The position numbers were made by a program, and so were the translations under genes. This document shows positions 2,836 to 5,802 of a stretch of DNA of 5,802 bases, piece by piece (positions within the stretch are counted from its first letter, which is position 1; every line of letters starts with the position of its first letter). The notes under the pieces are model-generated. The model searched no databases and had not been told where the DNA came from. It worked only from the letters and a program-made list of their open reading frames with translations. This DNA is from a virus (taxonomy: Duplodnaviria > Heunggongvirae > Uroviricota > Caudoviricetes). The DNA lies in the IMG/VR virus record IMGVR_UViG_2737471861_000007. One strand, 5' to 3'.

Positions 2836-3435
2836 ATGCGTAAACTTTATGCCGCCATTTTGTCCGCAGCCATCTGTCTGGCCGTATCCGGTGCGCCTGC
2901 ATGGGCGTCTGAACATCAGTCCACGCTGAGCGCGGGCTATCTTCATGCCTCGACGAACGTTTCCGGCAGCGATGATCTGAACGGGATTAACGTGAAATAC
3001 CGTTATGAGTTTACGGACACGCTGGGAATGGTGACGTCATTCAGCTATGCAGGAGACAAGAATCGCCAGCTTACCCGTTACAGCGATACCCGCTGGCATG
3101 AAGATTCCGTGCGTAACCGCTGGTTCAGCGTGATGGCGGGGCCGTCTGTACGCGTGAATGAATGGTTCAGCGCGTATGCGATGGCAGGCGTGGCTTACAG
3201 CCGTGTGTCGACTTTTTCCGGGGATTACCTCCGCGTAACTGACAACAAGGGGAAAACGCACGATGTGCTGACCGGAAGTGATGACGGTCGCCACAGCAAC
3301 ACGTCTCTGGCGTGGGGGGCTGGCGTGCAGTTTAACCCGACCGAATCCGTGGCCGTTGACGTCGCTTATGAAGGCTCCGGCAGCGGTGACTGGCGTACCA
3401 ACAGTTTCATCGTGGGTGTCGGTTATAAATTCTGA
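2836..3435 (+). CDS. lom: Lom outer-membrane protein, Ail/Lom/PagC/OmpX-type beta-barrel family, 199 aa, with a predicted 24-aa signal peptide (2836-2907, cleavage after AWA)
   Basis: Complete ORF with ATG start and an upstream RBS. The N-terminus ([24 protein letters not shown]) is a typical Sec signal peptide. The C-terminus ([26 protein letters not shown]) matches the lambda Lom C-terminus as I recall it and ends in the aromatic residue typical of outer-membrane beta-barrels. Other motifs ([21 protein letters not shown]) fit the Ail/Lom family. The position between J and stf is the classical lambda lom locus. Confidence 0.92.
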
Positions 3436-3461: not shown

Positions 3462-3489
3462 AGCCCGCCGTTTCAGGCGGGCTTTTTTG
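3462..3489 (+). terminator. Rho-independent terminator downstream of lom: 8-bp stem AGCCCGCC/GGCGGGCT with loop GTTTCA, followed by TTTTTTG
   Basis: Read directly from the sequence: AGCCCGCCgtttcaGGCGGGCTtttttt, beginning 27 nt after the lom stop codon and ending about 10 nt before the stf start. Perfect GC-rich stem followed by a T-tract. Confidence 0.7.
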
Positions 3490-3499
3490 TGGGGTGAAT

Positions 3500-5802
3500 A
3501 TGGCAGTAAAGATTTCAGGTGTACTGAAAGACGGCACAGGAAAACCGGTACAGAACTGCACAATCCAGCTGAAAGCAAAACGTAACAGTACCACTGTGGT
3601 GGTGAACACGCTGGCCTCAGAAAATCCGGATGAAGCCGGGCGTTACAGCATGGACGTTGAGTACGGTCAGTACAGCGTTATTCTGTTGGTGGAGGGATTC
3701 CCGCCGTCACATGCCGGGACCATCACCGTGTATGAAGATTCTCAACCCGGTACGCTGAATGATTTTCTCGGTGCCATGACGGAGGATGATGCCCGTCCGG
3801 AGGCACTGCGCCGTTTTGAACTGATGGTGGAAGAGGTGGCGCGTAACGCGTCCGCGGTGGCACAGAACACAGCAGCCGCGAAGAAGTCAGCCAGCGATGC
3901 CAGCACATCAGCCCGTGAGGCGGCAACCCATGCGACTGATGCTGCAGGCTCAGCACGCGCAGCCAGCACGTCAGCCGGACAGGCCGCGTCGTCGGCTCAG
4001 TCAGCGTCTTCCAGCGCAGGAACGGCATCAGCAAAGGCCACTGAAGCATCAAAAAGTGCTGCCGCTGCAGAGTCCTCAAAAAGCGCGGCGGCTACCAGTG
4101 CCGGTGCAGCGAAAACGTCAGAAACGAATGCGGCAGCGTCACAACAATCAGCCGCCACGTCTGCATCCACCGCGACCTCGAAAGCGTCAGAAGCTGCCAC
4201 GTCAGCCAGGGATGCGGCGGTCTCAAAAGAGGCGGCAAAATCATCAGAAACGAGCGCAGCCTCGAGCGCCGGTAGCGCAGCTTCCTCGGCAACGGCGGCA
4301 GGAAATTCCGCGAAGGCGGCAAAAACGTCCGAGACGAACGCTAAGTCTTCTGAAACGGCAGCGGGACAGAGTGCCTCAGCTGCGGCAGGCTCAAAAACAG
4401 CGGCTGCGTCGTCTGCCAGTGCAGCGTCAACAAGTGCCGGGCAGGCCTCAGCCAGTGCCACCGCCGCCGGAAAATCGGCAGAAAGCGCCGCATCGTCCGC
4501 TTCAACAGCCACAACGAAGGCTGGCGAAGCCACTGAACAGGCCAGTGCAGCAGCGAGGTCTGCTTCCGCAGCGAAGACATCCGAGACGAACGCGAAAGCG
4601 TCGGAAACCAGTGCAGAATCCTCAAAAATGGCAGCCGCATCGTCCGCCAGTTCGGCGGCGTCATCGGCATCATCTGCGTCTGCTTCAAAAGATGAGGCGA
4701 CCAGACAGGCGTCAGCAGCGAGGGGCAGCGCCACGACGGCATCCACGAAGGCGACAGAGGCTGCTGGCAGTGCGGCAGCGGCAGCACAGAGCAAAAGTAC
4801 GGCAGAATCCGCAGCAACGCGCGCTGAGACAGCGGCAAAACGGGCAGAGGATATTGCATCCGCCGTGGCGCTTGAGGATGCGAGCACGACGAAAAAGGGG
4901 ATAGTCCAGCTAAGCAGCGCGACTAACAGCACTTCCGAGTCACAGGCGGCAACGCCAAAAGCCGTTAAGGCCGCGTATGACCTGGCTAACGGGAAATACA
5001 CCGCACAGGATGCAACGACAGCACAGAAAGGGATAGTTCAGCTCAGCAGCGCGACCAACAGCACATCTGAAATGCTGGCGGCAACGCCAAAGTCGGTAAA
5101 GGCAGCCTATGACCTTGCTAACGGGAAATATACTGCTCAGGACGCTACGACAGCACAAAAAGGAATTGTCCAGCTCAGTAGTGCAACCAACAGCGCATCT
5201 GAAACGCTTGCCGCGACACCGAAAGCAGTGAAAGCAGCTAATGATAATGCGAATGGTCGGGTACCTTCTGCCCGTAAGGTGAATGGTAAGGCGCTTTCAG
5301 CGGATATAACACTGACGCCGAAAGATATTGGTACGCTTAACTCAACAACAATGTCCTTCAGCGGTGGTGCTGGTTGGTTCAAATTAGCAACGGTAACCAT
5401 GCCACAGGCGAGTTCTGTTGTTTCAATTACGTTGATTGGTGGCGCGGGATTTAACGTGGGGTCACCTCAACAGGCAGGTATATCTGAACTTGTTTTGCGT
5501 GCAGGTAATGGTAATCCGAAGGGGATTACTGGTGCTTTATGGCAGCGCACATCGACAGGGTTTACAAATTTTGCCTGGGTCAATACATCTGGTGATACTT
5601 ACGATATTTACGTTGCAATCGGAAATTATGCGACTGGTGTAAATATTCAATGGGATTATACCAGTAATGCCAGCGTGACTATTCATACGTCACCAGCATA
5701 TTCTGCTAATAAGCCGGAAGGGTTAACGGACGGTACAGTTTATTCACTCTATACGCCATCAGAGCAGTTTTATCCGCCTGGCGCACCAATCCCGTGGCCA
5801 TC
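3500..5802 (+). CDS. stf: Side tail fibre protein Stf, N-terminal 767 codons; 3'-partial. The frame stays open to the window edge, which is why it is absent from the ORF track.
   Basis: ATG at 3500-3502 preceded by a G-rich SD (GTGGGG). I translated the frame by hand and found it open to 5802. The N-terminus (MAVKISGVLKDGTGKPVQNCTIQLKA...RYSMDVEYGQYSVIL...FPPSHAGTITVYEDSQPGTLNDFL...) matches lambda Stf (orf-401) as I recall it. This is followed by an Ala/Ser/Thr-rich shaft, a 'KGIVQLSSATNSTSE..AATPKAVK' fibre repeat, and the conserved 'FYPPGAPIPWP' motif at the window end. Confidence 0.9.
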   Translation, partial: MAVKISGVLKDGTGKPVQNCTIQLKAKRNSTTVVVNTLASENPDEAGRYSMDVEYGQYSVILLVEGFPPSHAGTITVYEDSQPGTLNDFLGAMTEDDARPEALRRFELMVEEVARNASAVAQNTAAAKKSASDASTSAREAATHATDAAGSARAASTSAGQAASSAQSASSSAGTASAKATEASKSAAAAESSKSAAATSAGAAKTSETNAAASQQSAATSASTATSKASEAATSARDAAVSKEAAKSSETSAASSAGSAASSATAAGNSAKAAKTSETNAKSSETAAGQSASAAAGSKTAAASSASAASTSAGQASASATAAGKSAESAASSASTATTKAGEATEQASAAARSASAAKTSETNAKASETSAESSKMAAASSASSAASSASSASASKDEATRQASAARGSATTASTKATEAAGSAAAAAQSKSTAESAATRAETAAKRAEDIASAVALEDASTTKKGIVQLSSATNSTSESQAATPKAVKAAYDLANGKYTAQDATTAQKGIVQLSSATNSTSEMLAATPKSVKAAYDLANGKYTAQDATTAQKGIVQLSSATNSASETLAATPKAVKAANDNANGRVPSARKVNGKALSADITLTPKDIGTLNSTTMSFSGGAGWFKLATVTMPQASSVVSITLIGGAGFNVGSPQQAGISELVLRAGNGNPKGITGALWQRTSTGFTNFAWVNTSGDTYDIYVAIGNYATGVNIQWDYTSNASVTIHTSPAYSANKPEGLTDGTVYSLYTPSEQFYPPGAPIPWP
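3850..4876 (+). repeat. Low-complexity Ala/Ser/Thr/Lys/Glu-rich shaft region of Stf, built from long imperfect direct repeats that include three copies of a roughly 27-nt core (4106-4132, 4315-4341, 4568-4594) encoding AAKTSETNA
   Basis: Seen in the sequence: gcagcgaaaacgtcagaaacgaatgcg, gcggcaaaaacgtccgagacgaacgct and gcagcgaagacatccgagacgaacgcg, each followed by Ser/Ala-rich stretches (SAGQASAS, ASSASAAS). The approximate period between copies is 210-250 nt. Confidence 0.65.
4877..5245 (+). repeat. Three tandem in-frame copies of a 132-nt (44-aa) phage tail-fibre repeat in Stf, at 4877-5008, 5009-5140 and 5141 to about 5245 (third copy diverges at its end)
   Basis: Translations of the three copies: DASTTKKGIVQLSSATNSTSESQAATPKAVKAAYDLANGKYTAQ; DATTAQKGIVQLSSATNSTSEMLAATPKSVKAAYDLANGKYTAQ; DATTAQKGIVQLSSATNSASETLAATPKAVKAANDNANGR... 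The copies differ mainly at synonymous positions (for example ata gtc cag cta / ata gtt cag ctc / att gtc cag ctc). Confidence 0.85.

Follow-up and report, generated by a model that had tools for sequence, protein, structure and literature searches.

A widespread fibre module in place of the hinge and distal coiled coil of a lambda-like Stf protein

The tail-fibre gene stf closes a 5,802-nucleotide (nt) stretch of DNA, here called the window, from the Caudoviricetes virus record IMGVR_UViG_2737471861_000007 in IMG/VR. Between positions 5233 and 5772 this gene has no DNA homology to stf of phage lambda and encodes an AT-rich module that is also found in the fibres of many unrelated phages. On balance, we think it probable that the segment is a portable fibre cassette that was swapped by recombination and that forms a structural in-line knob, this estimate applying to the explanation as a whole. 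Such a cassette would consist of a connector of ~30 residues and a self-folding beta-sandwich domain of ~139 residues, and would occupy the place of the lambda hinge and distal rod, immediately upstream of the tip with its collar, needle and head. The parts of stf and of its product are listed below, with amino acids abbreviated as aa, GC content at second and third codon positions as GC2 and GC3, and the predicted local distance difference test score of structural models as pLDDT.

3500..5802, + strand: stf, its 5' 2303 nt (767 codons), open at the window end; identified from its translation and the homologue WP_000279113.1
3500..3901, + strand: N-terminal tail-attachment domain of Stf, aa 1-134 (Pfam PF08400 phage_tail_N, E 7.5e-72)
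3902..4864, + strand: Ala/Ser-rich proximal shaft, aa 135-455 (GC2 0.81; gap against lambda in blastn)
4883..5245, + strand: three Phage_fiber_2 repeats, aa 462-582 (Pfam PF03406, three stretches; the third already AT-richer)
5233..5772, + strand (gene nt 1734-2273): segment without DNA homology to lambda stf (blastn), replacing lambda aa 386-529
5246..5338, + strand: linker, aa 583-613, with the motif RKVNGKALSADITLTPKDIGT (pLDDT <50 in the monomer model)
5339..5755, + strand: core of the portable module, aa 614-752 (~139 residues), predicted to be a jelly-roll-like beta-sandwich
5773..5802, + strand: collar start of the receptor-binding tip (FYPPGAPIPWP), where lambda homology is back (blastn; Pfam PF07484 Collar from aa 761, position 5780)

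Replacement of the distal half of lambda Stf

An initial annotation of the window had described an AT-richer domain of about 175 aa, inserted between the fibre repeats and the GAPIPWP motif and not recognised from lambda Stf. Codons 583-757 of stf (5246-5770) translate exactly into the peptide that it quoted, and blastn against lambda stf found nothing for 5233-5772, between conserved flanks. Lambda homology (86.7%) returns at gene nt 2274, shortly before GAPIPWP; the corresponding position in lambda stf is nt 1589 (aa 530). At the same place lambda has LDSPALTG...GAGENSAFPA followed by GAPIPWPSD, and its aa 386-529 make up 144 residues of a peptide different from that of the window. Since lambda carries 144 unrelated residues between the conserved flanks, the segment is a replacement and not a pure insertion; the domain is thus absent from lambda Stf, as had been noted, but it was not inserted.

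The structure of Ur-lambda, obtained by electron cryomicroscopy and cryotomography, places the hinge of lambda Stf at aa 394-422 and the distal coiled coil at aa 423-525 (Yu et al. 2025, PMC12617516). No counterpart of these parts (aa 394-525) was found at the DNA level in the window stf, and the peptide differs. The window Stf is a variant allele, and its distal half is not orthologous to that of lambda. The edges of the segment coincide with R393 and S528, which are the fusion points of working engineered lambda Stf chimeras (PMC11338833).

In its overall plan the protein resembles Stf of lambda (Ur-lambda; 774 aa), with an N-terminal attachment domain, an Ala/Ser coiled-coil shaft, a Phage_fiber_2 repeat and a tip with collar and His-box needle that is 69% identical, and the gene order J-lom-stf-tfa is the same. 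It differs in that lambda aa 386-529 are swapped for two extra repeats, the linker and the predicted beta-sandwich module, in a shaft that is 105 aa longer, in an unlike tip head and in its length of 971 aa. This is the length of the closest full-length homologue, WP_000279113.1, which is 99.8% identical over 5200-5802; the expectation of a protein of well over 1000 aa was therefore too high.

The three fibre repeats of the initial annotation were recovered both by Tandem Repeats Finder (a 132-nt unit in 2.4 copies at 4893-5205) and as three Phage_fiber_2 stretches in Pfam, and all three match the single repeat of lambda, nt 1080-1156 (blastn). Open reading frames that overlap stf in other frames or on the other strand within 5137-5686 were dismissed, since homology and the ratio of nonsynonymous to synonymous substitution frequencies (dN/dS) back the stf frame.

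Composition shift at synonymous positions

The GC content of the segment at 5246-5770 (Stf aa 583-757) is 0.455, and in 200-nt intervals the values drop from 0.58-0.65 at 3800-4900 to 0.425-0.485 at 5200-5800. Part of the high upstream value is explained by the Ala/Ser content of the shaft, as seen from its GC2 of 0.81. Because amino-acid content inflates the GC content of the shaft, the contrast was measured at third codon positions, where it persists. The GC3 value is 0.36 at 5246-5770, compared with 0.59 for aa 1-134, 0.51 for aa 135-455, 0.535 for aa 456-582 and 0.48 for the C-terminal block of the full-length homologue. Codons with G or C at the third position make up 62 of the 175 in the module and 417 of the 796 elsewhere (Fisher's test, p=5.7e-5), so the AT-richer stretch and the non-uniform composition that had been noted hold when quantified. 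A two-breakpoint likelihood scan delimited the low-GC3 block to codons 543-775, with a likelihood that none of 200 permutations reached. With its start at codon 543, the AT-rich block begins inside the third repeat, a little before 5246.

Module definition and distribution across phage fibres

Searches of Pfam, NCBIfam and PDB sequences with the module, both as a single sequence and as a family profile, gave nothing usable; the one NCBIfam line, for PrtP, was regarded as noise, since it scored 13.8 bits where the cut-off is 300. Matches were obtained to the PHROG tail-fibre families 3299, 21552, 6722, 11029 and 22609, beginning at aa 544-547. The homology spans the whole core and includes the motifs GW.K.A.V.MPQ, GG.GFN.G, E(I/L)V.R.GN.NPKG and NTSGD.YD(I/V)Y. 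The domain is not named in the published descriptions of Bas63, RBPseg and Ur-lambda. The novelty lies in defining a fibre domain that is widespread yet has neither a family entry nor a solved structure.

Searches with tblastn identified the module in 296 phage records, which include RB49 and many other T-even relatives as well as Acinetobacter T4-like phages. Two of the records have unexpected hosts and may be contaminated or mislabelled: OR844957.1 (1843 nt), labelled Enterococcus phage Efm 3-10, with the module at 1313-1741 (57.6% identity), and MG065664.1, labelled Campylobacter phage A132, with the module at 26667-27077 (40.9% identity). The profile used in the representative search took in flanking repeats and tip domains, and its 1011 matches are not module-specific; the listed proteins were re-scored with a hidden Markov model (HMM) of the module only. 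By this measure the module is present in 93 of the 133 new cluster representatives (50% identity) from the exhaustive search, at free positions within proteins of 300 to 2682 aa. Two representatives carry two copies per fibre, at aa 159-297 and 476-614 in P0104 and at aa 565-698 and 885-1022 in P0139. In the alignments, sequences of at least three kinds precede the module, and the tips that follow it are of two kinds, the lambda/T4 collar-needle and a Mu/T2 type with GGNSI.(L/F)GD.DTG. Linker versions are likewise interchangeable across fibre contexts.

The internal region of T2 gp37 at aa 819-925 is homologous to the module (48% identity over 104 aa at aa 822-924, E 7e-30) and matches the rest of its gene in composition, but it sits in a myovirus fibre of 1341 aa, where the module is followed by Gp34_trimer and Peptidase_S74 domains and by a gp38 adhesin. 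The module is absent from gp37 and gp34 of T4. In the long tail fibre of the Felixounavirus Salmonella phage Mushroom (AJF40588, 839 aa), it is located at aa 474-611 and is followed by a match to Gp10_C at aa 645-750 and then by one to a His-box repeat of Phage_fiber at aa 802-814. We read these distal regions as a T4-like tip, which gives the same order of parts as in the window Stf, whereas the N-terminal part, with gp37_trimer repeats, is unrelated and the identity is only about 45%. The Mu-like Yersinia phage vB_YpM_6 has the module at 83% identity, but there it opens a protein encoded beside the hin invertase and is joined to a tip of the Mu/T2 type. The stf product of the P1-like Escherichia phage JL22 has 137 of the 139 core residues identical (85.6% over the 175-aa query) and the collar and needle tip in common, and there is 91% DNA identity over 464 nt. 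Both vB_YpM_6 and JL22 differ from the window in that theirs are myovirus fibres.

Among complete E. coli genomes, module DNA was found in 1423 of 5426; the hinge and rod segment of lambda itself, at >=95% identity, was found in only about 97 complete E. coli records, some of them, at least, from laboratory strains. The many unrelated fibre backbones that carry the module bear out the suggestion that it was acquired horizontally and that the fibre is mosaic.

Transfer and recombination

The GC3 values of the module are close to those of the rest of the gene in T2 gp37 (0.23 vs 0.23) and in the Mushroom fibre (0.29 vs 0.27), whereas the module is lower in lambdoid Stf (0.345 vs 0.52), Mu-like Sv (0.25 vs 0.41) and P1-like S (0.33 vs 0.44). 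This pattern would fit an origin of the module in AT-rich virulent myoviruses, and the most likely source would be a lineage compositionally like T2-type or Felix O1-type phages.

To compare the divergence of the two parts of stf, we used the synonymous substitution frequencies (dS) between the window and the allele of E. coli 118UI. The dS value is 0.097 over aa 1-455 and 0.008 over the module, a 12-fold lower synonymous divergence for the module. Exchange of the 3' part of stf has thus been more recent than that of the 5' part, and the contrast between 3500-4864 and 5246-5770 suggests that otherwise similar prophages differ by a recombination event with a breakpoint inside stf.

Repeat 3 is the probable place where the imported block begins (about 5126), given the GC3 change point at codon 543 and the PHROG matches that begin at aa 544-547. 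The AT-rich segment of the initial annotation therefore stands, whereas its start at 5246 probably lies too far downstream. If the import starts in repeat 3, recombination would have joined it on the left at the repeat itself and on the right at the collar start. Arrival would most likely have been by homologous recombination at these two conserved joints, the Phage_fiber_2 repeat (...ATPKAVK) on the left and GAPIPWP on the right.

It could be argued that there was no horizontal transfer at all, and that stf was inherited vertically, its low GC content reflecting the amino-acid content or constraints on codons or mRNA at this place. The amino-acid content of the Ala/Ser shaft does make part of the contrast. 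Yet the shift is significant at third codon positions, lambda has unrelated sequence there between conserved flanks, the same module occurs in unrelated fibres and its synonymous divergence is far below that of the 5' part, and we consider vertical inheritance highly improbable.

Predicted fold

Homologue searches for structure prediction gave short and mostly partial proteins of <=307 aa, so that the alignments used for folding were shallow. A first AlphaFold2 (AF2) model, of the monomer, had a pLDDT of 68, and Foldseek gave no match to it below 1e-3. Other matches of this model, to Csp protease jelly-rolls, the collagen-binding domain of ColH, GOLD domains and plant virus coats, were generic beta-sandwich matches (Z <=8.0) and were not built on. 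A second model, built on an alignment of slightly greater diversity, had a pLDDT of 78.8 and singled out WceF (PDB 6tgf, residues 531-667, the aligned residues being inferred), whose jelly-roll beta-sandwich the module resembles in fold. The tailspikes of Acinetobacter phages (6c72, 8oq0, 5w5p) were compared as having the same kind of jelly-roll domain as WceF. Domains of the WceF type share only 13% identity with the module, with no sequence-level match in phmmer or in a PDB profile search, and in both WceF and the tailspikes the domain is C-terminal to an enzymatic beta-helix, not before a needle tip. On these models, the module is predicted to be a self-folding, independent, beta-rich domain with a beta-sandwich fold.

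An independent beta-rich domain had been raised as a possibility in the initial annotation and agrees with the predicted fold, but the intramolecular chaperone that was offered as one form of it does not suit the data. A chaperone or assembly domain of this kind would be removed from the mature fibre or be dispensable in it, and some fibres, such as T2 gp37, do have a Peptidase_S74 chaperone domain. However, the module is internal and not C-terminal, has no Peptidase_S74 match in Pfam and is separate from the S74 domain of T2 gp37 (aa 1243-1300), while homologous loci have a separate tail fibre assembly gene, tfa, after stf. A chaperone function is accordingly hard to credit.

Constraint and possible role of the module

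Between the window and JL22, the module has a dN/dS ratio of 0.035 at a dS value of 0.32, and no hypervariable stretch was found in the module alignments. The module is under strong purifying selection.

By analogy, the linker with RKVNGKALSADITLTPKDIGT is probably an intertwined trimeric connector. Three copies of the domain would most likely splay from it to form an in-line knob in the trimeric fibre, which would space, stiffen and orient the tip, setting reach and stiffness in place of the lambda hinge and rod. The choice of receptor would rest with the tip and the Tfa-assisted head. We favour such a structural knob because the module is strongly constrained and without a hypervariable stretch, while the head of the tip differs from that of lambda. 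The boundaries, the composition, the homology across fibre families, the purifying selection and the fold class are what the data show, while the transfer direction, the joints, the trimeric knob and a structural instead of a ligand-binding role are deduced from them. Several points weigh against this explanation: the direction of transfer was deduced from composition, the trimeric arrangement was taken by analogy while the models are of a monomer, and strong purifying selection would fit a conserved ligand equally well.

A ligand of this sort is the essence of the main alternative explanation, in which the module is an accessory lectin-like domain that makes a second, low-affinity contact with a glycan (lipopolysaccharide core, O-antigen or capsule) beside the protein receptor of the tip. 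The structurally nearest proteins are glycan-processing, tailspike-like trimers, and the C-terminal domain of the Acinetobacter tailspike has been suggested to act in receptor binding (PMC11058221). The collagen-binding and GOLD domains matched by the earlier AF2 model would also agree with such a role, and the two copies in some fibres would suit avidity, but the module has no sequence match to any carbohydrate-binding module or lectin family. Variability in fibres is usually highest where they contact the receptor, whereas this protein, with its low dN/dS, is near-identical across lambdoid, P1-like and Mu-like fibres with different tips. We consider a lectin-like function unlikely, though it has some points in its favour.

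A related scenario, which we rate as quite unlikely, is that of a conserved glycan-binding knob from virulent myoviruses of the T-even or Felix O1 type that spread to lambdoid, Mu-like and P1-like fibres for surface contact independent of the tip. If true, it would explain the presence of the module in about a quarter of the complete E. coli genomes.

Other parts of Stf and neighbouring genes

Outside the segment, lambda stf nt 1-909 aligns with the window stf at 87.6% DNA identity (blastn). The shaft holds 315 nt (105 aa) at 4409-4722 that are absent from lambda Stf (blastn), and the proximal coiled coil is consequently longer than that of lambda, where it corresponds to aa 102-393 (PMC12617516). 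The tip of the 971-aa homologue is composed of the PF07484 Collar and PF03335 repeats (a His-box needle of the T4 gp37 type), of which the first 10 residues alone lie inside the window; the identity to lambda given above refers to its C-terminal block. Past the window end, at 6575-7213 of the E. coli 118UI locus, the tip retains the collar and His-box needle of lambda; the region in the middle of its head differs and is shorter. With a head region unlike that of lambda, the receptor may not be OmpC, as it is for lambda.

The window covers the last part of a block of tail genes of the lambda type, with J and lom upstream of stf:

10-2766: J, last 918 codons
2785-2808: terminator-like hairpin and T run, after J
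2836-3435: lom
3462-3483: terminator-like hairpin and T run, after lom

In two closely related E. coli loci, L001 (E. coli 118UI) and L008, the genes run from tape measure through M, L, K, I, J, lom and stf to tfa. The tfa gene is directly 3' of stf in both, and the window stops before it. The top whole-window match among complete E. coli genomes has 96.7% identity, and this type of locus is common among them. A scan of the window against Rfam gave no match.

Given the hairpins and T runs after J and lom, stf may be transcriptionally set off from lom. The J gene is 94% identical to lambda J over 1-2322, but its last ~148 codons (2323-2766) have no DNA homology to it; Pfam still detects the Ig_GpJ_C receptor-binding domain there, and the GC content is down to ~0.47-0.52. 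With a 3' end of J unlike that of lambda, the central fibre also bears a swapped receptor-binding end. DNA homology to lambda lom is patchy only (2975-3019, and from 3308 onward), which makes lom a divergent Ail/Lom allele. In E. coli 118UI, a gene for an IS200C transposase is located between lom and stf (3722-4180) and the pinQ invertase gene after tfaQ (7889-8479); the window has no such insertion sequence between lom and stf.

Implications for tail-fibre evolution

Since the module occurs in many unrelated phages, its presence here is a case of ordinary, well-supported shuffling of tail-fibre modules. Mosaicism of tail fibres has reportedly been known since the early 1990s, the studies said to have described it being Haggard-Ljungquist 1992, Sandmeier 1994 and Tetart 1998, and the finding thus adds an example and not a principle. 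The natural boundaries of the segment agree with R393 and S528, which supports these fusion sites as natural recombination joints. For Stf chimeras, the module is a ready alternative distal scaffold that lacks the lambda hinge. As a very common module shared by fibres of lambdoid, Mu-like, P1-like, T2-like and Felix O1-like phages, it merits a family definition and a structure.

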